Part shown: positions 20,841 to 63,393 of the stretch, one piece after another
How the letters are laid out: every line of letters begins with the position of its first letter
How positions within the stretch are numbered: the first letter of the stretch is position 1
Assembly (NCBI GenBank): GCA_026394495.1
Contig: JAPKYE010000028.1
Location: forward strand, 6,691-70,690
Source of the DNA: Methanobacteriota archaeon
GTDB taxonomy: Archaea > Thermoplasmatota > E2 > DHVEG-1
Length of the DNA stretch: 64,000 nucleotides
Direction: 5' to 3'
The notes under the pieces: generated by a model
Databases searched by the model: none
The model's input: the letters and a program-made list of their open reading frames with translations, nothing else
Told to the model about the DNA's origin: nothing
Position numbers and translations under genes: made by a program

Positions 20841-21695
20841 ATGAAAAAGGAGAAAAAGAAAAACATGAAAAATACTAAAATTTTTGGGATAGGAATAGCA
20901 GCGTTTATGATTTTAGCTGTATTTACAGTAATGATGGCCACGCCTGTACTGGCTGACGGTGATCCTTATGATGGCGCAAATGGAACCGCAGACCATCCTG
21001 ATGGACATCCTGGTCTACCTGGAGATGCAAGTCATCCAAATGGTGGTAACGGCGGGCATGCGTACCCAGGTAGTACCGGTAATGGTGGAAAAGGTGGCGA
21101 TGGAGCCTACCAAAATCCTGGTGATGGTGGCAAAGGAGGAAATGGTGGACAAAGTGCTGGTAATGGGAATGGCGGGGATGGCGGCAAAGGCGGAGGCAGC
21201 GGATCTGGTAAAGGTGGCGATGGTGGAGACGCGGGAAACTCTGGTCCCGGCAGTGGTAATGGTGGCAAGGGTGGAGAAGCAGGAGGCAGCAGTACTGGTG
21301 AGGGTGGCGAGGGTGGACACGGTGGAAACGCTGGTGGAACTGGTAATGCTGGCGAAGGTGGAGACGGCGGAGACAGCGGTACTGATAATGGCGGAGATGC
21401 AGGAGATGGGGGAAACAGTGTTGGTGGTGGTGGTGGAGACGGCGGAGACGGCGGTGATAGCGGTGGTGGTTTAACTAAACATGCCGGTGATGGCGGTGAT
21501 GGTGGAAATGGAAATCCTCCTGGAGAAGGGGGACATCATGGGACATGTGGAGGTGGGTGGCAAGGCTGGGATGGAGATGACGGCGATGTCCCACCAATAC
21601 CAGGGGAGAAAGGGAAATTTGAAAAGGTCATAAAAGGGATTGAAACAGGTGTGGAAGTAGGGAAAGTAATAGCACCCCTAATAAAAGTAAAGTAA
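20841..21695 (+). CDS. Secreted Gly/Asp/Asn-rich tandem-repeat protein (GNGGKGGDG-type repeats) with signal peptide and basic amphipathic C-terminal tail
   Basis: N-terminal KNTKIFGIGIAAFMILAVFTVMMATPVLA signal; ~200 aa of degenerate GGxGGxG repeats; coding strand G-rich, giving spurious ORFs in other frames. Confidence 0.6.
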   Translation: MKKEKKKNMKNTKIFGIGIAAFMILAVFTVMMATPVLADGDPYDGANGTADHPDGHPGLPGDASHPNGGNGGHAYPGSTGNGGKGGDGAYQNPGDGGKGGNGGQSAGNGNGGDGGKGGGSGSGKGGDGGDAGNSGPGSGNGGKGGEAGGSSTGEGGEGGHGGNAGGTGNAGEGGDGGDSGTDNGGDAGDGGNSVGGGGGDGGDGGDSGGGLTKHAGDGGDGGNGNPPGEGGHHGTCGGGWQGWDGDDGDVPPIPGEKGKFEKVIKGIETGVEVGKVIAPLIKVK

Positions 21696-39781: not shown

Positions 39782-40471
39782 TTATCTCTTTTCAAATAGA
39801 TTTTTGTGATTAGAAATATAATTCATAGTACGAGAAAAACTAGTTCCTTTGTTTCGCTTGATGAATGCATAAATATCCTCAACAGTATCGATATCTGACC
39901 ATTCAGGGAGGATATGCACAGTTTTTTTATTGCGTTTCAGAACGGCTATAGTCTCCTGAAAAACCGCTGACGTACTCCAATGAATACCTTCAAAAAACGT
40001 TGGAGAAAAACCATCTTTTTTACATCCAAACAAATAGTATCCTCCATCGACAGACGGGCCCAGGGCAACATCATTAGTTCTCAATGCCCTTATAGCTTGT
40101 TTGATGAAATAAACCGGTAGATCAGGGGTATCGCTTCCTAGTAAAACAACAGTGTTGAATCCTTCAGCAAACGTTTGTAAAAAACTGTTTTTCATTCGTT
40201 CTCCAAGATCATTGCCTTTCTGCGGAAGATAATGATATTGTTTGCCTAGCCATGCCCTCATTTCATCATATGCTGTTTTGGGGGAAAAACAGATAAAAAA
40301 TGGAAGATGTAGCGATTCAATCAACTTAAGAGAATCCTGAACAAAATTCGTATACAACTCCCTAACCACTGTTTCATCGAGATTTGTTGCAAGACGGGTT
40401 TTTACGTTACCATTTTTTGGGTATTTTACGAAAAGAAGAATGCAGGCATCCTTGATTTCATCCATAATCAC
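39782..40471 (-). CDS. DUF2064/TIGR04282-like glycosyltransferase (partner of radical SAM/Cys-rich proteins)
   Basis: ILLFVKYPKNGNVKTRL…LGERM…VVLLGSDTPDL…DGGYYLFG matches the TIGR04282-type nucleotide-diphospho-sugar transferase fold. Confidence 0.6.
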   Translation of the reverse strand: MIMDEIKDACILLFVKYPKNGNVKTRLATNLDETVVRELYTNFVQDSLKLIESLHLPFFICFSPKTAYDEMRAWLGKQYHYLPQKGNDLGERMKNSFLQTFAEGFNTVVLLGSDTPDLPVYFIKQAIRALRTNDVALGPSVDGGYYLFGCKKDGFSPTFFEGIHWSTSAVFQETIAVLKRNKKTVHILPEWSDIDTVEDIYAFIKRNKGTSFSRTMNYISNHKNLFEKR

Positions 40472-40475
40472 ACAT

Positions 40476-41600
40476 CTATGACGATTTCTTCTGATTTTCT
40501 TTTTCCAATGCTTCCTCGAATAATTTCAGGATATCAATTACTTCAACATCGTTTTTTATTTTTACGAACTCCTCATAACAAGTCAGGCAGTCGCACACCA
40601 TGGTTTTTGCGTGTTGTTTTGCTTCGTTGAGTCGTATCATACGATTTTTTGTATTCGCAGGATCATAGTCTTGATTCCAATGATAACAACACAACGCCTG
40701 ATCACGAATATTCTGCATTTCAACAAGAGTACTAAATCGACTGATAGCCTTGCGAGTGGCATCGTCTCGTTTATACCGCCTCGTCAACCGACACGAATCA
40801 TGAAACGTCACCGCATCCCGTATTTTTAACGCTGGGAATTTCTCAACATGCTGCATCAGATATTCCACAACACTATACACCTCAAATGTACAATGATATC
40901 GTTTTTTTAACCAAAGAAGTGCTTCTAAACACTCCGCACAACCCGTGAGAACAACAGAAGGATTACATCTCTGTATTTTCTCATGCAACGCTTCCATGCA
41001 GTGATCAGCCAAATCAAACTCCCCTTGCAGTAATTGAGGAACACCACAACACGTGGTCAACCCGCCCAACACAACATACGGTGTCCCAACATGATCAAGA
41101 AGGTGTTTCGTCCGCCGTATCGTCTCAAACGAATAGATATAACAACCTGGATAAAACAAAACCGAAGCAGAAGAAGGCATTGTTTCCATATGACGCGCAA
41201 GATCAGGTGCTTTCTGCATTTTCATCGCAACATACAAACCTTGTGCAGTTTGTGCAATCGGACCAAGATCTGGTCCTCTGATCGCAAGATACCGCTTGTA
41301 CCCATACGGCTTCTCCTTGCGAAGTTTATATTTACACACAAGCATCATTTCATCCCGATGCAATCCTTCAGGACATGCGGGAACGCAGCGCCTACATTGA
41401 ACACATGAGAATGTGAAATCTTTAATTTTATCCGGAATATTTGTTTCTGCTTGCGCTGATTTGTTTAAATCCTGAACAGAAAAATCGTGTTTAAAGACAG
41501 GGCACACACTAAGACATTTACTGCATAAAATACAACCAGATAATTCCTCCGCAACCTTTGTGCATATCATTTTTGTAAAAGTTTCTTGTGTTTCTGCCAT
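40476..41600 (-). CDS. HdrD/GlpC-like iron-sulfur protein: two [4Fe-4S] ferredoxin motifs + two CCG domains
   Basis: CILCSKCLSVCP and CVQCRRCVPACP; CCG motifs TTCCGVPQ and ALCCYHW. Confidence 0.65.
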   Translation of the reverse strand: MAETQETFTKMICTKVAEELSGCILCSKCLSVCPVFKHDFSVQDLNKSAQAETNIPDKIKDFTFSCVQCRRCVPACPEGLHRDEMMLVCKYKLRKEKPYGYKRYLAIRGPDLGPIAQTAQGLYVAMKMQKAPDLARHMETMPSSASVLFYPGCYIYSFETIRRTKHLLDHVGTPYVVLGGLTTCCGVPQLLQGEFDLADHCMEALHEKIQRCNPSVVLTGCAECLEALLWLKKRYHCTFEVYSVVEYLMQHVEKFPALKIRDAVTFHDSCRLTRRYKRDDATRKAISRFSTLVEMQNIRDQALCCYHWNQDYDPANTKNRMIRLNEAKQHAKTMVCDCLTCYEEFVKIKNDVEVIDILKLFEEALEKENQKKSS

Positions 41601-41620
41601 AGACGTATGTTCAAAATATC

Positions 41621-42358
41621 TTAATGGTTTAGATTCCTAAATTTTTTCTGAGCTGCAAATACGACGATTCCAAGAAGACATACTGCAGTAATAACCACAC
41701 CAATGGACATCCATGATATTTTTCCAACAAGGACGCTTTCTGTAAAGAGATCACCAAAAACCACGACCAGGATTATCGCCGGGAGCATACATAACCAAGA
41801 CCAAAAAAGATATGTTTTAAATGATACTTTTGTTAATCCAAACGCATAGTTCAACAAATTAAAAGGAAGCAGAAAATTTAAACGCGCGAGAGCAACAATG
41901 AGAGCACCGTGTTTTTCAGTTAAATCATCGAGTTGCTGTAATCGCGTATGGCTGGACAGCCATCGCTCAGCGGAATCGCGAGCGAAATGCCGTGCAATGA
42001 TAAATGCGATGCCTGCTGAAAGAGTTGAGGAGATACTTACAAGAATAATTCCGACTACGCTACCAAAAACAGAACCAGCAATTATTCCGAGAAGTAAACC
42101 AGGTAAGGCAACAACTGTTAGAATGATATAAATCCCAATATATCCCAATGGTGCCCAGAAGCCTAGTGATTGAATCCAGTTTCTGATAGTTAAAAAAAAT
42201 TCTTTTAATTGTACGTTATACATGACACTAAAAATGAGAACAACGATAATGAGCCCAAGTAGAAAAGGAGGTTTCCAGATATCACGAATTGTTTTCTTTT
42301 TTGATTGTTGTACTTCATCATTATGTTGAATTGTCTCTTTCATTATTTTACTCACCAA
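41621..42358 (-). CDS. TVP38/TMEM64 (DedA/SNARE-associated) family membrane protein
   Basis: DedA-type multi-TM protein with conserved GxxxG…P core. Confidence 0.65.
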   Translation of the reverse strand: MVSKIMKETIQHNDEVQQSKKKTIRDIWKPPFLLGLIIVVLIFSVMYNVQLKEFFLTIRNWIQSLGFWAPLGYIGIYIILTVVALPGLLLGIIAGSVFGSVVGIILVSISSTLSAGIAFIIARHFARDSAERWLSSHTRLQQLDDLTEKHGALIVALARLNFLLPFNLLNYAFGLTKVSFKTYLFWSWLCMLPAIILVVVFGDLFTESVLVGKISWMSIGVVITAVCLLGIVVFAAQKKFRNLNH

Positions 42359-42371
42359 AGTTCATAACGTG

Positions 42372-43325
42372 CTAAACGAGTGCTCCACCGCAGGATGATC
42401 CATGACCTGCGGCGCAACCAAAACAATGAGTTCCTGTCACAATTGGTCGTGTAGATAATTTTGCTTGATTAAAATCTTTTATATGTTGTGGAACCTTTGA
42501 TGCAACATGTAGCCCTTGTGCTAGGTTAAAATCGCAATCATAGAGTGTTCCATCCCATCCAATGTTAATCTGATGACGACACATCAGTCCTTCTATTGTT
42601 TCTGGGTTAAACGATGATTTGAGGAGATCACGGTATTGTTTCTCCTGGTTATTTTGCTGCAGATCTTGTAAAAAACGTCCGATTGGCATATTTGTGATCG
42701 TGATCAAACGTGTAAAGTTGATCCCGTACTCCTCACCCAATACCTGATGATATTCCTTCTCGAGTACTAACTGCTCAGGTGGTAATACTGGATTAAGTGA
42801 ATTAAAGACAAGGATAAGTGATAACGAAGAATCTACACCGTATCCGATCGTATTTAACATTTGCAGTGATTTTATACTTTTTTCAAATACCTCTTTACCT
42901 CGTTGTAAACGCACTTCTTCTTCCAGGTAACAGGGTAATGATGCTACGAGTTGAATTTTGTTTGTTTTGAGAAAATTAATGAGTGATTTCATCTCAGGAT
43001 TTTTAAGCAGGGTAAGATTGGTTCTTACTTGTATTTGATGGCCCTGTTTATGTAAAACCTGAATAAATTGTGTTAAACACGGGTGAAGTTCAGGAGCACC
43101 GCCCGTGATATCAATGAAACACTTTGGTAATTGCTTGGTCACCTCAAGAATTGCTTGCATCGTTGACCATTCCATCATCTCAACCCTGGATGGTGACCCC
43201 TGTACATGGCAATGTCTGCATTCTTGATTACAGCGAAATCCGATGTTCACCTGCACGGTTTTTAGTGAATCGCACCGCAGATTTTTTCCGGTGACTTCTT
43301 TGATTTTTTGTTCAAATTCATTCAT
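42372..43325 (-). CDS. Radical SAM/Cys-rich domain protein (TIGR04167, ArsS-like)
   Basis: CNQECRHC (CxxxCxxC) at the N-terminus; C-terminal Cys-rich tail HCFGCAAGHGSSCGG; neighbours are the two glycosyltransferase types that co-occur with this family. Confidence 0.65.
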   Translation of the reverse strand: MNEFEQKIKEVTGKNLRCDSLKTVQVNIGFRCNQECRHCHVQGSPSRVEMMEWSTMQAILEVTKQLPKCFIDITGGAPELHPCLTQFIQVLHKQGHQIQVRTNLTLLKNPEMKSLINFLKTNKIQLVASLPCYLEEEVRLQRGKEVFEKSIKSLQMLNTIGYGVDSSLSLILVFNSLNPVLPPEQLVLEKEYHQVLGEEYGINFTRLITITNMPIGRFLQDLQQNNQEKQYRDLLKSSFNPETIEGLMCRHQINIGWDGTLYDCDFNLAQGLHVASKVPQHIKDFNQAKLSTRPIVTGTHCFGCAAGHGSSCGGALV

Positions 43326-43387
43326 TGTTTGTACCTTTGAAAAACAAGTCTTTCAATCATGGCAACCATTTAAAGATTTCTTTTTCA

Positions 43388-44110
43388 TCATTCTTTTGGA
43401 TACCGATGCCATTTCGTTAATCTCTCTGCAGAAACCCCGCAGCGATAAAGGACGAGTATCAAAATATTCAGCAGAGTTGTATAGAATGTGCCTTGTTTTT
43501 CCCATCTCCTTGGAGATGTAACAACTCGATCAGGAAGAATACAGATTTTTTCTTTTGCTTTTTTGATACGTAACATAAGTTCAAGATCCTCCATCAAAGG
43601 AAGATCCGGGTATCCGCCTAACTGCTCAAAACATGTTTTTCGAAGAAAAATAACTTGGTCCCCATAGGGGATTCGCGTCAGCTGAGATCGAGTGGTTGAT
43701 AAGGCAGCGACAACCTTTGGTAATAATTTTTTTGAGTTGATCGTAAGGGTGAATGCACCGCCAACAAAATTTTTTTGTTTTAACACTTCTTTGATACGTG
43801 CGAGGGCGTTCTGGGGCAGGAACGTGTCTGCATGAAGAAACATAAGAATCTCCCCTTTAGCTATAGCTGCGCCTGCATTCATCTGTTTAGCACGTCCTTT
43901 CATGGTTGTCAGAGTTGTTACAGTTTTATCAGTAAGCGTTTGAATGGTATCTTTCTGAGGGCTTCCGTCAACAACGATGATTTCGTAGGACTCAGTGGTT
44001 TGCGACTGATGAATATGTTCAAGCAGCATATTGATGGTCTCAGATTCATGAAGAACAGGAATAATAATGGAAAAACTACATGATGCTGGTTTTTCTGTTT
44101 TCTTTATCAT
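43388..44110 (-). CDS. Family-2 glycosyltransferase (TIGR04283-like); start at the internal Met (MIKKTEKPAS…)
   Basis: GT2 signature SIIIPVLHE…IIVVDGSPQ…; the table start is over-extended through hydrophobic junk. Confidence 0.65.
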   Translation of the reverse strand: MIKKTEKPASCSFSIIIPVLHESETINMLLEHIHQSQTTESYEIIVVDGSPQKDTIQTLTDKTVTTLTTMKGRAKQMNAGAAIAKGEILMFLHADTFLPQNALARIKEVLKQKNFVGGAFTLTINSKKLLPKVVAALSTTRSQLTRIPYGDQVIFLRKTCFEQLGGYPDLPLMEDLELMLRIKKAKEKICILPDRVVTSPRRWEKQGTFYTTLLNILILVLYRCGVSAERLTKWHRYPKE

Positions 44111-44186
44111 AGTACAATACTGTATACATAAAAGAAATGATAAAATATATGGTATCCGCTTTCCTATTTCTTGTACCGAGATCTTT

Positions 44187-45062
44187 ATGAAAAAAAATAG
44201 ATCAATACTCATAATAAGTTTGCTTTTTATTAGTATACTTATCAGATGTGTTCCGACCGGATTGTGCGAGACTTCAACTGGTTCTATTTTCAATGTAGGT
44301 GGAACCGGCGCAGGAAATTACACGAACATCCAAGATGCGATCAATGTGGCATCTGCTGGAGATACCGTGTTTGTGTTCAACGGTACATATCATGAGAACC
44401 TGATCGTAAACACAAGCATTCAGCTGATTGGCGAAGACAGGAATACTACGATTATTAACGGAAGTAGGAACGGATGCGTAATTATCCTTACTGCAGACCA
44501 GGTGACGATAACTGGATTTACCATCACCTGGGGAGGACTAATGTTTCCCGATGCAGGAATATGTGTTGAATCATCAGATAACACGATTACCAAAAACACA
44601 ATTGTGGAGAATTACTATGGGATGCATATGTCGTATTTCTCAGGAAATACTTTGATTTCTGAGAATTACATTGCAAACAATCATCAATGCGGGATTTATT
44701 TCAGCAGATCTTCAAACAACCGCCTCATCGGAAACACAGTTATGAATCAACCATCGAACGGGTTTGGGCTGTATGAATCCTCAAACAACAACACCATCAT
44801 TGGAAATACCCTAAGCCATAATGGGTTCTGCGGAGTCAACATCCGAGATTCATTTAACAATCATGTCTCCAATAATCAGTTCATCGGCAACAACATTGGT
44901 TTGCATGTGCCGCCACCTGATCATTATACCGCGGTTTGCAGTAACTTTTTTTCAGACAACCACGTTGCCTATGAAGAAGGATATGATGTCTCTGCGTTTT
45001 CTCTGGTGATCGTGATGGCCCTTATTTTCATTGTTTTTATTGTGCTAAAGAAAAAAAGTTGA
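44187..45062 (+). CDS. Secreted right-handed parallel beta-helix (NosD/pectin-lyase-fold) repeat protein with C-terminal TM anchor
   Basis: Signal peptide MKKNRSILIISLLFISIL; repeated N-rich beta-helix rungs; C-terminal hydrophobic anchor + KKKS. Confidence 0.6.
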   Translation: MKKNRSILIISLLFISILIRCVPTGLCETSTGSIFNVGGTGAGNYTNIQDAINVASAGDTVFVFNGTYHENLIVNTSIQLIGEDRNTTIINGSRNGCVIILTADQVTITGFTITWGGLMFPDAGICVESSDNTITKNTIVENYYGMHMSYFSGNTLISENYIANNHQCGIYFSRSSNNRLIGNTVMNQPSNGFGLYESSNNNTIIGNTLSHNGFCGVNIRDSFNNHVSNNQFIGNNIGLHVPPPDHYTAVCSNFFSDNHVAYEEGYDVSAFSLVIVMALIFIVFIVLKKKS

Positions 45063-57531: not shown

Positions 57532-58023
57532 TTAATTATAATACAGTACTCCTGTGAGGAAAATACCTAATAATAAGTAAAAGAGAATATAGATGACTTC
57601 TCCGGGGAACCATTGTTCTTCGGTCAAATATTGAAAAAATAATTTAATTAAAACACCAGGATGCCAATATTCACTTTGAAAAAAACCATATAAGATTTTT
57701 AAAAAAATGACGGGATAGAAACAAAGGAACCATTGCTCACTTTTAACAAGATCTGCGTTCACATTAATAAAAGCTCCAATAAGAAGTGCTGCCGTCTGGA
57801 TTAACGGATATAGATTATGATCTTTGAGATATTCATACATTTTTATAAAGAAATACCCTGGAAACCAGGCATCTAGCGTATTTTCATTTAATTTTTCCTT
57901 AATATTTTGGATTTTTAGTTGGATAGATTGTTTTATGGTTTGAGCACTAATAACAGAAGTAAACGACATAAGTATGACAATAATGACTGCTCCGATGCTT
58001 CCAATGAAGATTTTCTTTTTCAT
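57532..58023 (-). CDS. Small membrane protein with signal peptide and three W-x-P-G-hydrophobic repeats
   Basis: MKKKIFIGSIGAVIIVILMSF; repeats DAWFPGYFFI / EYWHPGVLIKLFF / EQWFPGEVIYILF. Confidence 0.4.
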   Translation of the reverse strand: MKKKIFIGSIGAVIIVILMSFTSVISAQTIKQSIQLKIQNIKEKLNENTLDAWFPGYFFIKMYEYLKDHNLYPLIQTAALLIGAFINVNADLVKSEQWFLCFYPVIFLKILYGFFQSEYWHPGVLIKLFFQYLTEEQWFPGEVIYILFYLLLGIFLTGVLYYN

Positions 58024-58074
58024 TTTTCTCCCCACCCGTATTTAATATTCCATACCCTGGTATTTTTATTAATT

Positions 58075-58335
58075 TTAAGGTGGGGTGTGATGGTTAATTC
58101 CCCACCATACGATAAAATACAAGAAAATACTAAAAAGTAACGCCAGTCCAGCCCCAGGATACCACATATTTTGACTTAATACTTCTTTCCAATACATATT
58201 TTTCATTGTAACAATTTTTGATTTTGCAATTTTATTGATAGACGTTGACTGAGCGCAAACACATAACGACATTGACGCTAACACTAGTAAAAACACTGCC
58301 CCAACACTTCCACCCATGCTCAAACTTCGTTTCAT
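58075..58335 (-). CDS. Small membrane protein, paralog of 57532..58023 (signal peptide + one W-Y-P-G unit)
   Basis: MKRSLSMGGSVGAVFLLVLASMSL…NMWYPGAGLALLFSIF. Confidence 0.4.
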   Translation of the reverse strand: MKRSLSMGGSVGAVFLLVLASMSLCVCAQSTSINKIAKSKIVTMKNMYWKEVLSQNMWYPGAGLALLFSIFLYFIVWWGINHHTPP

Positions 58336-58506
58336 TTTTTTAAACTCATATTATCCATGTTTGTTCTTTTATTTAAGGCTTTTCTCCCTATTTTTAATAT
58401 TTGGAGGGTGCCTTTTTTGTCAAAATTCCGCGTAAAATTTATATACTTCTTAATTACATATAACTACAGATAGTTATTAGTAATTATAGGTAATGAGGTA
58501 AATAAT

Positions 58507-58743
58507 ATGACAGAACAAAAAGATGAAAACAAATATACGACCGTCTCCATCCCAACACAACTCGCAGAAAAAATAAAAAAACGCATCCAAGGAACAGGAT
58601 TCAACTCACTCTCATCCTACGTCACCTACGTCCTCAGAGAAGTCCTCTCAAGCAACGACGACGAAGAACGAAAAGAAGCATTCAGCAAAGAAGACGAAGA
58701 AAAAGTAAAAGACAGACTCCGAGCACTCGGCTACCTCGACTAA
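58507..58743 (+). CDS. Ribbon-helix-helix (CopG-family) transcriptional regulator
   Basis: TTVSIPTQLAEKIKKRI…SSYVTYVLREVL RHH pattern. Confidence 0.6.
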   Translation: MTEQKDENKYTTVSIPTQLAEKIKKRIQGTGFNSLSSYVTYVLREVLSSNDDEERKEAFSKEDEEKVKDRLRALGYLD

Positions 58744-58765
58744 AAAAAATTAGCTTTGTGATCTC

Positions 58766-59674
58766 ATGCAATACAACTTAAACCATCTCCAAAAACTTGA
58801 ATCAGAAGCAATCTACGTTCTCCGAGAGGTTGCTGCACAATTCGAACGACCAGTCCTTCTTTTCTCAGGAGGAAAAGACTCCATCATCATGGGACATCTT
58901 GCCAAAAAAGCGTTCCAACCCGCACCAATACCATTTCCATTCCTTCACATAGACACCGGCCATAACTTCCCAGAAACCATAGAATACCGAGACGATTTCA
59001 TAAAAAAACTTGGTGTACGACTCATCGTCGGATCAGTCCAACACTCCATCGACACCGGACGCGTACGAGAAGAAAAAGGACGATACGCAAGCAGAAACAT
59101 ACTACAAACCGTAACACTCCTAGATACGATTCATGAACAGAAATACGATGCAGCAATAGGAGGCGGAAGAAGAGACGAAGAAAAAACACGAGCAAAAGAA
59201 CGATTCTTCTCCCATCGAAACGAAATCGGACAATGGGACCCCAAAAACCAACGACCCGAACTTTGGGATCTTTACAACGGAAGAAAACACCATGGAGAAC
59301 AATTCCGCATATTTCCACTTAGTAACTGGACAGAGATGGATGTATGGCAATATATCCTAAAAGAACAGATTTCCATCCCAACAATCTATTTTTCCCACAA
59401 ACGAAAATGCATCACTAGAGACGGCGTGATTCTTGCATACTCACCATATCTAAATATTGATCCTGATGAGAAAAAAAACATACAAACAATGACTGTCCGC
59501 TGTCGAACCGTAGGAGACATGACCTGCACAGGACTTGTTGAATCCGCTGCGAAAACCGTCGAGGAAATCATCGAAGAAGTCGCTGCCTGCAGATTTTCTG
59601 AGCGTATCAGCCGCGCAGATGATCTTCGATCAGAAAACGCGATGGAAGACCGAAAAAAGGAGGGATATTTCTAA
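58766..59674 (+). CDS. cysD: Sulfate adenylyltransferase subunit 2
   Basis: PAPS-reductase-fold PP-loop LLFSGGKDS. Confidence 0.88.
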   Translation: MQYNLNHLQKLESEAIYVLREVAAQFERPVLLFSGGKDSIIMGHLAKKAFQPAPIPFPFLHIDTGHNFPETIEYRDDFIKKLGVRLIVGSVQHSIDTGRVREEKGRYASRNILQTVTLLDTIHEQKYDAAIGGGRRDEEKTRAKERFFSHRNEIGQWDPKNQRPELWDLYNGRKHHGEQFRIFPLSNWTEMDVWQYILKEQISIPTIYFSHKRKCITRDGVILAYSPYLNIDPDEKKNIQTMTVRCRTVGDMTCTGLVESAAKTVEEIIEEVAACRFSERISRADDLRSENAMEDRKKEGYF

Positions 59675-59676
59675 CC

Positions 59677-60945
59677 ATGAACCAAAAAACCTATCAAGAA
59701 ATGGAGCTCCTTCGATTCACAACCGCAGGAAGCGTCGATGATGGAAAAAGCACGCTCATCGGCAGGCTTCTCTACGACACAAAAACGATTTTTCAGGATC
59801 AACTCAGAAACCTAGAACGACTCTGCTTGCAGCGAGGCGAACAACTCAATCTTGCATTGCTCACCGATGGACTGCGCGCAGAACGAGAACAAGGAATAAC
59901 AATTGATGTCGCATATCGATATTTTGCAACACCAAACAGAAAATTCATTATAGCTGATACCCCCGGCCATATTCAATATACACGGAACATGGTGACTGGC
60001 GCATCAACAGCTAACCTTGCATTGATCCTTGTCGATGCACGAAACGGGGTGACAGAACAAACCCATCGTCATCTATTCATCGCCTCACTCTTACAGATTC
60101 CACATGTAGTGATCTGCATCAATAAAATGGATCTTATGAACTACAAACAAGAAGTTTATGAATCAATAAAAAATCAATTAAAGGATTTCATCGCAAAACT
60201 CAACATCCCAGATATTTCATTTATCCCTATCAGCGCACTACAAGGAGACAACGTGGTTGAACCATCAAAACAGATGCTATGGTACAACGGTCCAACAGTT
60301 CTTTATCATCTGGAAAACGTCCATATAGGAAGCGATGAAAACCTGATTGACTGCAGATTTCCCGTTCAATACGTGATCAGACCGCGATCCGATGAGTATC
60401 ATGATTACCGGGGATACGGCGGAAAAATAGCGAGCGGCGTATTCAAAGTAGGAGACAAAATAAAGGTTCTCCCCTCAGGTTTTACCACTACAATAACATC
60501 AATAGAATCCCCAGATGGATCCATACAAGAAGCATTTCCGCCGATGTCAGTGGTGATTCAGCTTACCGATGACCTTGATATCAGCCGCGGAGACATGCTA
60601 GTCCGGGAACATAACCAGCCGACGGTGAGTCAACATATCGATGCAATGATCTGCTGGATGAACAATTGTTCTCTTCGAGCGGAAAATAAATACATTCTGC
60701 GACATACCACAAAAGAAGTCAAATGTGTGATAAACGAAATATCGTACAAACTTGATATCAACACGTTACATCGAATAGAAAATGCTACTGAACTTGGACT
60801 AAACGACATAGGAAGAATAACCCTAAAGACAGCACAACCGATTTATTTTGATAGCTACCGCAGGAACCGCTCCACAGGCTGCTTCATTTTAATCGACGAA
60901 AAAACAAACGAAACCGTAGGAGCAGGAATGATACGAGACGTGTAA
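59677..60945 (+). CDS. cysN: Sulfate adenylyltransferase subunit 1 (GTPase)
   Basis: G1 motif GSVDDGKSTLIGRLL, DTPGH, NKMD. Confidence 0.88.
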   Translation: MNQKTYQEMELLRFTTAGSVDDGKSTLIGRLLYDTKTIFQDQLRNLERLCLQRGEQLNLALLTDGLRAEREQGITIDVAYRYFATPNRKFIIADTPGHIQYTRNMVTGASTANLALILVDARNGVTEQTHRHLFIASLLQIPHVVICINKMDLMNYKQEVYESIKNQLKDFIAKLNIPDISFIPISALQGDNVVEPSKQMLWYNGPTVLYHLENVHIGSDENLIDCRFPVQYVIRPRSDEYHDYRGYGGKIASGVFKVGDKIKVLPSGFTTTITSIESPDGSIQEAFPPMSVVIQLTDDLDISRGDMLVREHNQPTVSQHIDAMICWMNNCSLRAENKYILRHTTKEVKCVINEISYKLDINTLHRIENATELGLNDIGRITLKTAQPIYFDSYRRNRSTGCFILIDEKTNETVGAGMIRDV

Positions 60946-60949
60946 AAAT

Positions 60950-61939
60950 ATGGATGAAAAAAAAGAGTTATTTCAGAACTTGAAAGGAAAAGGGCTCATC
61001 ATTCATCACTGGGACACCGATGGCATCTGCTCCGCCCACATACTCCTGCATCATTTATCGGATAAAAAAATAGTGAATAAAACACCGATTATTGGTAACT
61101 ATTTTCTTACCGAACAAGAACTAAAATCCTATGCTAAATATGATTTCATCATCATTTTGGATATGTCACTTCCTGAATCAAACATAAAGATTCTTGCGCA
61201 AAAAGCGCAGGTGTTTATTTTTGATCATCATCTTGGATCAGTGATTCCCTATGTGTTTCACCACAACCCAGTAATCAACGGAGAAAAACCAGAGAAGTAT
61301 CCTTCAACAAGCTGGATAATAAATACATTTTTTGGGAAAGCAGTAAACATCCATGCGATCTTAGGTGTTGTCGGCGACCATGAAAACAACATCCAAAAAA
61401 ACAAAGTGTTTTCATCCGTAATCTCTGAGTTCTGCAAAACATCAAACCTAAATTTCGCTGATCTCGTGCAAATGACGTATCTGCTTGACTCGTGTTACAA
61501 AGTTGGCGACAAAACAATGGTTGAAAAACTGCCAAAACTGCTTCTCAAAGAGACAGATGGCCACAGTATTGTTCAAAATGATATATTAAAAAACAATCTT
61601 ATGCTCCTTGAACAAGAGATAACAAAACATATCATACATCACGGTGAAGAAATCAACGGAGTGCTTGTAAAAAAAATTGATACAAAATACAATATTATTT
61701 CGACGGTGACACGAAAGATCGCGTGGGACAGCAAAAAAAACACGCTTGTTATTAACACTGGTTTTTTTGCAGATAGAAATCAGATTTATGTACGAAGCAA
61801 CAAAAACATGGAACCGCTGATTGCACGAGGGAAAACACTAGGATACAACTGCGGAGGAAAAAAAGAGGTGCTAGGAGCAATTGTACCAAAAGAGGAAACA
61901 GATTCTTTTGTTCAAGAGATACTACGTTTTCTTCAATGA
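60950..61939 (+). CDS. DHH-family phosphoesterase (NrnA-like; candidate 3'-phosphoadenosine-5'-phosphate phosphatase)
   Basis: HHWDTDGICSAHIL (DxD) and FDHHLG (DHH) motifs; embedded between cysN and cysC. Confidence 0.65.
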   Translation: MDEKKELFQNLKGKGLIIHHWDTDGICSAHILLHHLSDKKIVNKTPIIGNYFLTEQELKSYAKYDFIIILDMSLPESNIKILAQKAQVFIFDHHLGSVIPYVFHHNPVINGEKPEKYPSTSWIINTFFGKAVNIHAILGVVGDHENNIQKNKVFSSVISEFCKTSNLNFADLVQMTYLLDSCYKVGDKTMVEKLPKLLLKETDGHSIVQNDILKNNLMLLEQEITKHIIHHGEEINGVLVKKIDTKYNIISTVTRKIAWDSKKNTLVINTGFFADRNQIYVRSNKNMEPLIARGKTLGYNCGGKKEVLGAIVPKEETDSFVQEILRFLQ

Positions 61940-61957
61940 AAAAAAACGAGGTTTGAT

Positions 61958-62491
61958 ATGAAGGAACAAAAAGGCTTCACCGTCTGGTTCACTGGACTTC
62001 CCTGCTGCGGGAAAACAACAATCGCTGATCAACTGGCGATCATTCTAAAAAAACAGGGATATCTTGTTGAGCGACTTGATGGGGATATCATACGAAAAGA
62101 CCTCACAAGTGATCTTGGTTTTTCCAAAGAAGATCGCGACGAAAACATCAGACGAGTAACCTTTGTTGCAAAGCTTCTCACAAGAAATGGCGTTGTGGTT
62201 CTTGCCACCTTTGTTTCGCCCTACCAGGCGCAACGAACACAAGCACACAAAGAAATTGGTGCCTTCGTTGAAGTCTATGTCCGCTGTCCAAAAGACGTAT
62301 GCATGAAACGCGATGTGAAAGGAATGTACAAAAAAGCACTTGCAGGAAAACTCAAAGGATTCACTGGTGTCGACGACCCCTATGAAGAACCACAACATCC
62401 GGAAATCATTGTTGATACAGATAAAGAAACCGTAGATGAAAGCATAGAACACATCCTATACGCATTGAAACAATTAGGATATACAAAATAA
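61958..62491 (+). CDS. cysC: Adenylylsulfate (APS) kinase
   Basis: APS-kinase fold; P-loop GLPCCGKTTIA (unusual Cys-Cys in the Walker A motif). Confidence 0.8.
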   Translation: MKEQKGFTVWFTGLPCCGKTTIADQLAIILKKQGYLVERLDGDIIRKDLTSDLGFSKEDRDENIRRVTFVAKLLTRNGVVVLATFVSPYQAQRTQAHKEIGAFVEVYVRCPKDVCMKRDVKGMYKKALAGKLKGFTGVDDPYEEPQHPEIIVDTDKETVDESIEHILYALKQLGYTK

Positions 62492-62505
62492 GGAGTGAAA
62501 ACCAA

Positions 62506-63102
62506 ATGGTTACACTTGACAAAACAAGAAATTATATTGTTTCTGGTTTGGAACGATCAGGAACAAGTCTTCTCATGCAGATGCTTCATGCAGGCAACAT
62601 CCCAACAGCATCTGATACACTGCGACCAGCTGATGAACACAACCCTAAAGGATACTTTGAGCTTGAAGGCGGAAAAATCATTAACCGACTCATGGAAAAA
62701 ACATTTTCCATGGAAAAATGCAAAGGAGTATTTATCAAAATCACTGCATATGGTTTACAGTTTCTCCCACCTGGAAAATACACCATCATTTACTCAGAAC
62801 GAAACCTTGATGAAATCATGGATTCCATGGAAAAAATGACAAAAACAAAAGATACTAACCCAAAGGAAACAAAAGAGAGTTTTAGGAAATTAAACGCTCT
62901 GATAAAAAAACAGATCGAATCACGAAACGACATACAGGTGATGTTTGTGAACTACAACGATATCATTTCTCAACCAGAACATATAAGCAAAAAAATTATT
63001 GATTTCCTTGGATGCACTGATGTTAATGTACAGGACATGTTTGCAACAGTAGATAAAAACTTGTATCGGCAGAGACAAAAAACAACAGAAAACACCCCCT
63101 AA
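62506..63102 (+). CDS. PAPS-dependent sulfotransferase family protein
   Basis: 5'-PSB-like SGLERSGTSLL motif and 3'-PB region; follows cysC. Confidence 0.65.
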   Translation: MVTLDKTRNYIVSGLERSGTSLLMQMLHAGNIPTASDTLRPADEHNPKGYFELEGGKIINRLMEKTFSMEKCKGVFIKITAYGLQFLPPGKYTIIYSERNLDEIMDSMEKMTKTKDTNPKETKESFRKLNALIKKQIESRNDIQVMFVNYNDIISQPEHISKKIIDFLGCTDVNVQDMFATVDKNLYRQRQKTTENTP

Positions 63103-63159: not shown

Positions 63160-63393
63160 GTGTGCTTAGCGATCCCTGGAAAAATCATCAAAATCGACAC
63201 AAAAAAAGAACATGCGACTGTTGATTATGGCGATGGAACGAAACGAAATGCAAACATTACTCTAGTCGACGTGAAAGTCGGTGATTACGTCTTAGTCCAT
63301 GCTGGATTTGCAATCCAATTATTAAGCAAAAAAGAAGCGCAAGAAACCCTTGCGTTGTTTCGAGAGATGCTGTCTTTTGGGGAGGGCTTATAA
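63160..63393 (+). CDS. hypC: [NiFe]-hydrogenase maturation factor HypC
   Basis: N-terminal MCLAIP signature. Confidence 0.85.
   Translation: MCLAIPGKIIKIDTKKEHATVDYGDGTKRNANITLVDVKVGDYVLVHAGFAIQLLSKKEAQETLALFREMLSFGEGL

Follow-up and report, generated by a model that had tools for sequence, protein, structure and literature searches.

Gene modules that couple a dedicated supply of 3'-phosphoadenosine-5'-phosphosulfate (PAPS) to a specific sulfotransferase are known from bacteria. The nodPQ-nodH genes of Sinorhizobium and the raxPQ-raxST genes of Xanthomonas both provide PAPS through proteins of the CysDN/CysC type and serve for sulfation, the acceptors being the Nod factor and a tyrosine of RaxX, respectively. 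To our knowledge, both systems are without an embedded phosphatase for the by-product 3'-phosphoadenosine-5'-phosphate (PAP) and without a regulator of the ribbon-helix-helix (RHH) type, and their sulfotransferases are larger than the one described here and not closely related to it. In this study, we describe a six-gene cassette of an uncultured sediment archaeon, found in a stretch of 64 kb of its genome (contig JAPKYE010000028.1; the whole stretch is referred to as the window), which in our judgement is likely to be an autoregulated operon for PAPS-dependent sulfation with built-in PAP removal, and not a sulfur assimilation operon.

In Archaea, the combination of sulfate activation to PAPS with a homologous DHH-family PAP phosphatase has been described in Methanothermococcus thermolithotrophicus, where both are encoded together (Jespersen et al. 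2023, PMC10322725). The genome of that organism holds a PAPS reductase resembling adenosine-5'-phosphosulfate (APS) reductases and an F420-dependent sulfite reductase, and no sulfotransferase (PMC10322725). The window cassette, in contrast, has a sulfotransferase and no reductase, and its ATP sulfurylase is the heterodimeric, GTP-coupled CysDN, most of its relatives having Sat instead. Regarding the sulfation of archaeal glycans, Agl30 and Agl31 of Halobacterium salinarum are the only genetically defined proteins; they sulfate the iduronic and glucuronic acid of an N-glycan, the kind of product proposed here, but they have a sulfatase/alkaline-phosphatase fold that is unrelated to the P-loop PAPS-sulfotransferase fold of the present enzyme (PMC11980604). 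In the searchable literature we found no biochemical demonstration of PAPS-dependent sulfation in Archaea. Each enzyme type of the cassette is thus already known, as is the kind of module, PAPS supply plus sulfotransferase, in bacteria; what is new is the archaeal setting, the phosphatase of the M. thermolithotrophicus type (MtPAPP), the conserved pairing of RHH protein and operator, and an uncharacterised family of minimal sulfotransferases.

The cassette extends over positions 58507-63102 of the forward strand as six co-directional open reading frames (ORFs), separated by gaps of 22, 2, 4, 18 and 14 bp and preceded by a candidate operator. The features, with the evidence for each (HMM, hidden Markov model), are the following:

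58451..58496, forward strand: candidate operator of 10-bp-phased TAATTAnATA-type repeats (repeat search and conservation)
58507..58743, forward strand: RHH-like (CopG/Arc/MetJ-type) protein, 78 amino acids (source annotations, weak HMM matches)
58766..59674, forward strand: CysD, small subunit of sulfate adenylyltransferase (ATP sulfurylase), 302 amino acids (HMM)
59677..60945, forward strand: CysN, GTPase subunit of ATP sulfurylase, 422 amino acids (HMM, G motifs)
60950..61939, forward strand: DHH-family PAP phosphatase, MtPAPP type, 329 amino acids (PF01368, PDB 8A8K)
61958..62491, forward strand: CysC, APS kinase, 177 amino acids (HMM, P-loop GLPCCGKTT)
62506..63102, forward strand: predicted minimal PAPS-dependent sulfotransferase, 198 amino acids (HMM, motifs, fold model)

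The enzyme identities are shown by homology. CysD scores 440.6 bits with NF003587 (cut-off 195) and 417.5 bits with TIGR02039 (cut-off 396.6), and is also matched by PF01507. CysN reaches 550.5 bits with TIGR02034 (cut-off 336.1) and carries the G1, G3 and G4 motifs GSVDDGKST, DTPGH and NKMD; a second gene call places its start at 59701, which would give 414 amino acids. As its match to the 632-position model of CysN/CysC fusions is confined to positions 18-431, CysN has no kinase fused to it and the kinase is supplied by the separate CysC, which scores 209 bits with PF01583, 231 bits with TIGR00455 (cut-off 138.7) and 245.4 bits with NF002059 (cut-off 244). A preliminary description of this DNA, made from the sequence alone, had proposed six closely packed co-directional genes here with PAPS synthesis by CysD, CysN and CysC. 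Both statements hold, with all ORFs present and gaps of 2-22 bp, scores above the curated NCBIfam cut-offs, and the GTPase motifs and P-loop in place; the two motifs it quoted, RSGTSLL in the sulfotransferase and GLPCCGKTT in CysC, were found as well. It had also pointed to the CC of the latter as unusual. The CC is there, but it is not peculiar to this gene: the GLPCCGKTT P-loop is common to the subgroup of CysC linked to CysDN (seven loci including the window), whereas the genes linked to Sat mostly have GLSGSGKST. A sequencing oddity was considered for the CC and rejected in view of this conservation within the subgroup, and the comparison indicates that it is a trait of the lineage.

The gene between cysN and cysC, for which the preliminary description had suggested recycling of PAP, can now be assigned far more firmly. 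Its product matches PF01368 with 33.5 bits (cut-off 28.1) and the structure of the M. thermolithotrophicus PAP phosphatase (PDB 8A8K) with an E-value of 1.6e-32 and 33% identity, residues 16-321 of 329 aligning with 22-325 of 335. MtPAPP is PAP-specific and stimulated by Mn, with His6, Asp8, Asp10, Asp57 and Asp127 as Mn ligands and His76/His77 in its DHH motif (PMC10322725). The ligand residues of the window protein are identical to those of 8A8K in HHWDTD, in the Asp of the ILD loop (ILD(M/L)xLP), in DHH and in the Asp of the GD motif (G(V/A)VGD), so that all Mn ligands are kept; the alignment also covers the second, DHHA1-like nucleotide-binding domain, including G-x-N-x-GGK-x-EVLG, of which GGK is identical. 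The prediction of a full-length homologue of the MtPAPP type is therefore well founded.

The last gene encodes a protein of 198 amino acids that is probably a PAPS-dependent sulfotransferase, belonging to a widespread family without a characterised close relative. The HMM search leaves this assignment of the preliminary description standing, with 39.6 bits for PF13469 (cut-off 27) and 31.8 bits for PF00685 (cut-off 22). Among 27 family members, the 5'-phosphosulfate-binding (5'-PSB) loop S13-G-L-E-R17-S-G-T-S21 (SGxERSGTS) is invariant, and it comes directly after the strand formed by residues 9-14 in the structure model of the window protein. In the same 27 members, R99 and S107 of the 3'-phosphate-binding (3'-PB) motif are invariant, in the context RNxx[DE]xxxS, and a profile alignment places YSERNieeildS opposite YVARNAKDVVVS of a cytosolic sulfotransferase. 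Structure prediction yields a confident model with the sulfotransferase fold, whose best structural matches are the tyrosylprotein sulfotransferases TPST1/2 and StaL. These share only 19-20% identity with the window protein, at sequence E-values of 0.2-0.4, and have chains of 240-280 amino acids; given the shorter chain here, the acceptor-binding elaborations are missing, and acceptor specificity cannot be transferred from TPST1/2 or StaL. A search of the PDB with the single sequence gave nothing below an E-value of 0.1, and a profile search of the PDB with the family gave only weak matches, to cytosolic sulfotransferases.

The family is large. It comprises over 3,800 clusters when grouped at 90% identity, and its representatives at 50% identity number 4,060 (E-values up to 0.001); of about 185,000 species representatives, 336 have a relative. 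Members from Thermoplasmatota, Asgard archaea (Borrarchaeum, Sifarchaeum), Aminicenantes, Cloacimonadota and others are 56-64% identical to each other. For Thermoplasmatota and Aminicenantes, literature searches on this sulfotransferase returned nothing relevant, and neither did searches on PAPS sulfation in Archaea. Ten distant relatives have fused domains (P0271, P0281, P0285, P0288, P0295, P0297, P0245, P0340, P0306 and P0373): TPR repeats occur in six, four have the Phosphodiest form of the alkaline-phosphatase-superfamily domain, in each case together with TPR repeats, one has the Sulfatase form of that domain, one is fused to a GT2 glycosyltransferase and one to an HD phosphohydrolase. 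Some distant relatives are thus joined to domains of the very superfamily whose fold is that of Agl30 and Agl31. The fusions would suit either a glycan acceptor or the combination of a protein partner with removal of the nucleotide by-product, and they are probably the reason for the stray label 'nucleotide pyrophosphatase, partial' on one family member.

The arrangement of the cassette recurs well beyond the window. We compared 80 species-representative loci with flanks of 10 kb on each side, counting conservation in the 29 archaeal loci whose upstream sequence is 4.3 kb or longer and, for downstream genes, in the 24 loci with enough downstream flank. The RHH gene, the PAP phosphatase gene and an ATP sulfurylase are each found in 28 of the 29 archaeal loci, the last as Sat (PF01747) in 20 and as CysDN, the window type, in eight; CysC lies within 6 kb in 27, upstream of the sulfotransferase in 25 and downstream of it in two. 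The order is RHH, Sat or CysDN, PAP phosphatase, CysC and sulfotransferase throughout, except in the Asgard loci, where PAP phosphatase, sulfotransferase and CysC follow one another. Given its recurrence in 28 of 29 archaeal loci, the six-gene arrangement is not due to chance, and the type of ATP sulfurylase, CysDN or the analogous Sat, is exchanged in place inside an otherwise fixed module. For most relatives, the possibility that the gene standing between those for the RHH protein and the phosphatase is novel was considered and rejected, as it encodes a common ATP sulfurylase of the Sat type. Directly 3' of the sulfotransferase, 14 of the 24 loci have a symporter of the DASS Na+/sulfate (anion) type and a Usp protein, an association that favours the reading as a sulfation operon, and archaeal GlmU, GlmS and a second GlmU come next in 16-17 of the 24.

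In bacteria, the RHH gene is linked to the sulfotransferase in nine of 19 loci. The arrangement there is sulfotransferase, RHH and, optionally, Sat and CysC, followed by a TviC-like epimerase and then by a nucleotide-sugar dehydrogenase of the TviB/WecC kind and a TuaD-like UDP-glucose dehydrogenase. Since RHH-sulfotransferase pairs also occur without PAPS-synthesis genes nearby (loci L025 and L078, and bacterial sulfotransferase-RHH loci), the sulfotransferase, rather than PAPS synthesis, is the core of the module. Some bacterial orthologues stand solitary among unrelated genes; the neighbours of these orphans, judged by eye to include a cytochrome bd oxidase, hydrolases and an aldo-keto reductase, have no common theme and were set aside as uninformative.

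The first gene encodes the protein of 78 amino acids that had been described as a CopG-type regulator. This label is not established by HMM alone, since no Pfam or NCBIfam model reaches its cut-off. Source annotations read CopG or Arc/MetJ regulator, RHH_1 and RHH_5 each match two of 31 members weakly (best E-value 0.0015), and the matches to the N-terminal domain of NikR are likewise weak (E-value 0.0027 with NCBIfam, 0.2 in a PDB profile search). A low-confidence model (predicted local distance difference test, pLDDT, 62.7) shows an extended N-terminal segment and helices at 17-27, 35-48 and 61-73; it was computed for the monomer, while the RHH strand forms in the dimer only, and in it the extended segment and the helices 17-27 and 35-48 do fit the RHH topology. 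The protein also has an acidic linker and an invariant C-terminal tail ending in SKEDEEKVKDRLRALGYLD, which reads [FL]SKEDEEKVKERL[KR]ALGY[LMI][DE] across the family. Residues S60, E64, R70, L71, L74, G75 and Y76 of this tail are invariant in 31 sequences, and across Archaea and Bacteria it is better conserved than the DNA-binding part.

Immediately 5' of this gene, positions 58451-58486 contain the inverted repeat TAATTACATATAACTA-4 nt-TAGTTATTAGTAATTA, which belongs to a series of TAATTAnATA units in a 10-bp phase with starts at 58451, 58461, 58471 and 58481. The array is placed between a TATA-like stretch (about 58433-58446) and the RHH start codon, and is the sole cluster of matches to this pattern in the window. 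Phased units at about -56, -46, -36 and -26 from the start codon are present in 31 of 32 Thermoplasmatota loci, where their density upstream of the RHH gene is 53 hits/kb, against 0.15 hits/kb elsewhere. In the related loci, which add up to about 1 Mb, three or more units cluster upstream of RHH genes only, one Asgard locus among them; the remaining Asgard loci have the related palindrome CTAATTAAyTATAATTAG. Cooperative RHH dimers, such as those of MetJ, CopG and omega, usually bind to short repeats in phase. As the conserved phased array clusters solely at its own gene, the 78-residue protein is probably an autoregulator acting on the operon through these repeats, a pairing of operator and regulator that we infer from conservation. 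The earlier proposal of a CopG-type regulator has in this way gained a conserved operator array in silico, while its RHH fold is weak by HMM. A scan for sigma-70 promoters and terminators stayed at background level with models that are ill-suited to an archaeon.

When E. coli CysH, CysI and CysJ were compared by phmmer with all stop-to-stop ORFs in the window and in the 80 loci, the only match was to CysD. Pfam scans of the window from 16.6 to 58 kb contained no NIR_SIR, no FAD_binding_2 and no second PAPS_reduct domain, and the first 16.6 kb, a ribosomal protein cluster, were inspected by eye. Beyond the window end, we read the gene table of a near-identical contig (the contig of P0124), which has the same gene order and an RHH protein 96% identical; in its 5.6 kb 3' of the cassette there is no PAPS reductase or sulfite reductase. 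The statement of the preliminary description that the window lacks both reductases is thus borne out and extends to the 80 related loci, and cysH together with sulfite reductase just outside the window, which it had named as what would speak against its reading, was not found in this downstream region. The sulfotransferase, the conserved module and the lack of nearby reductases all support a role in sulfation over assimilatory sulfate reduction.

Several points weigh against a sulfation operon, nevertheless. No gene related to an acceptor (glycosyltransferase, nucleotide-sugar enzyme) adjoins the cassette in the window, the sulfate symporter of many relatives is missing here with HypC in its place, and the RHH fold of the regulator is weak by HMM, with a structure model of low confidence. 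Archaeal sulfotransferases are still uncharacterised according to a review (PMC11625862), and the searchable literature has no characterised archaeal enzyme of the PAPS type. In addition, the window is 64 kb of a genome whose remainder could encode a PAPS reductase or sulfite reductase, and the sole characterised relative of the phosphatase acts in an assimilatory pathway (PMC10322725). These last two points are the ones that favour a rival reading modelled on M. thermolithotrophicus, assimilatory sulfate reduction, in which reductases encoded in other parts of the genome would use the PAPS, with the sulfotransferase as a side activity. In M. thermolithotrophicus, the genes of ATP sulfurylase, APS kinase and PAPP stand together in a predicted sulfate-reduction operon (PMC10322725), whereas a CysH- or CysI-like gene is present in neither the window nor any of the 80 loci, the sulfotransferase is the invariant terminal gene of the module, and RHH-sulfotransferase pairs persist without the genes for PAPS synthesis. 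We therefore regard assimilation as unlikely.

An alternative at the level of a single gene is that the 198-residue protein is a P-loop kinase-like enzyme instead of a sulfotransferase; with both Pfam models above their cut-offs, the invariant PAPS-binding motifs and the confident sulfotransferase-fold model, we give it hardly any weight. The sulfation reading itself leaves room for a further role of the regulator, as a partner or substrate of the sulfotransferase, either by binding of its C-terminal ...LGY[LMI][DE] tail or by sulfation of the tyrosine in it. In favour of this are the conservation of the tail, which exceeds that of the DNA-binding part, the constancy of the RHH-sulfotransferase gene pair, the nature of the best structural matches, all of them called tyrosylprotein sulfotransferases above, and the TPR fusions of distant relatives. 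We consider such a role very improbable, though less so than a kinase-like enzyme. If true, a transcription factor would be covalently marked according to the availability of PAPS, with feedback on transcription, and this would be an intracellular, regulatory protein tyrosine sulfation common to Archaea and Bacteria.

Returning to the sulfation operon, its steps can be proposed as follows. CysD and CysN would convert sulfate into APS by adenylylation, driven by GTP hydrolysis, CysC would phosphorylate APS to PAPS, and the 198-residue sulfotransferase would pass the sulfo group of PAPS on to the acceptor, at a hydroxyl or amino group. The MtPAPP-type phosphatase would then cleave PAP, an inhibitory and toxic by-product, into AMP and phosphate, and the RHH-like protein, binding as an array of dimers to the 10-bp-phased TAATTAnATA repeats over its own promoter, would gate the whole operon.

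As for the acceptor, the preliminary description had suggested a glycolipid or an S-layer N-glycan. None of the genes in the window identifies it, but the genes around related cassettes give a hint of nucleotide-sugar or glycan chemistry, and in particular of sugars derived from UDP-N-acetylglucosamine or of uronic acids. Since related loci adjoin GlmS/GlmU genes in archaea and TviC-, TviB/WecC- and TuaD-like genes in bacteria, our best guess, to be taken as a weak pointer, is a glycan or nucleotide sugar containing N-acetylhexosamine or uronic acid.

In the window itself, HypC (63160-63393) begins 57 bp after the sulfotransferase, and the near-identical contig continues beyond the window end with HypC, HypD, Fur, a flavin reductase-rubredoxin protein and HSP20 and, further on, with ferritin/rubrerythrins, TusA, DsrE and a cysteine desulfurase. 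The symporter, Usp and GlmU/GlmS genes that occupy this position in other Thermoplasmatota are absent from the window and from its closest relatives, where HypC stands instead, so that the downstream flank has been remodelled in this lineage. The other genes of the window are archaeal housekeeping genes, such as the ribosomal protein cluster (identified by eye), ArcTGT, a type-2 isopentenyl diphosphate (IPP) isomerase, an isopentenyl phosphate kinase and UbiA prenyltransferases.

A few further features of the window were observed. Just 5' of the operon, the reverse strand encodes two small predicted membrane or secreted proteins (57532-58035 and 58075-58335), both with W[FY]PG motifs (DAWFPGYFF, EQWFPGEV, NMWYPGAG) and not conserved in related loci. 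A small rhodanese-domain protein (PF00581; 17416-17874, reverse strand) with an N-terminal hydrophobic segment is the sole other sulfur-related gene seen in the window. Five co-directional genes at 39782-44293 of the reverse strand encode a DUF2064 protein (39782-40471), an iron-sulfur (Fe-S)/CCG-domain protein (40476-41600), a VTT-domain membrane protein (41621-42358), a radical SAM protein with DUF3641 (42372-43325) and a GT2 glycosyltransferase (43388-44293), a set that we take to resemble ArsS-type arsenosugar clusters or clusters for unusual lipids. At 20841-21695 of the forward strand, an ORF of 284 amino acids has a signal-like N-terminus followed by long, extremely glycine-rich repeats (GGxGG, GDGG). 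The GC skew of the window makes its strongest excursion (+0.22) at this ORF, which is without a Pfam hit and was left out of one of the Pfam scans.

All together, the cassette is compact and complete, comprising regulator, operator, PAPS synthesis, transferase and by-product removal, and it could be expressed as a unit in order to find the acceptor. If it serves for sulfation, the MtPAPP phosphatase family would gain a second physiological setting, besides assimilation. The comparison also defines a sulfotransferase family with at least 336 species representatives, spanning Thermoplasmatota, Asgard archaea, Aminicenantes and other sediment anaerobes. The sulfated products of such organisms may be an overlooked sulfate sink, and an equally overlooked feature of cell surfaces, in sulfidic sediments, where there is no need to assimilate sulfate.

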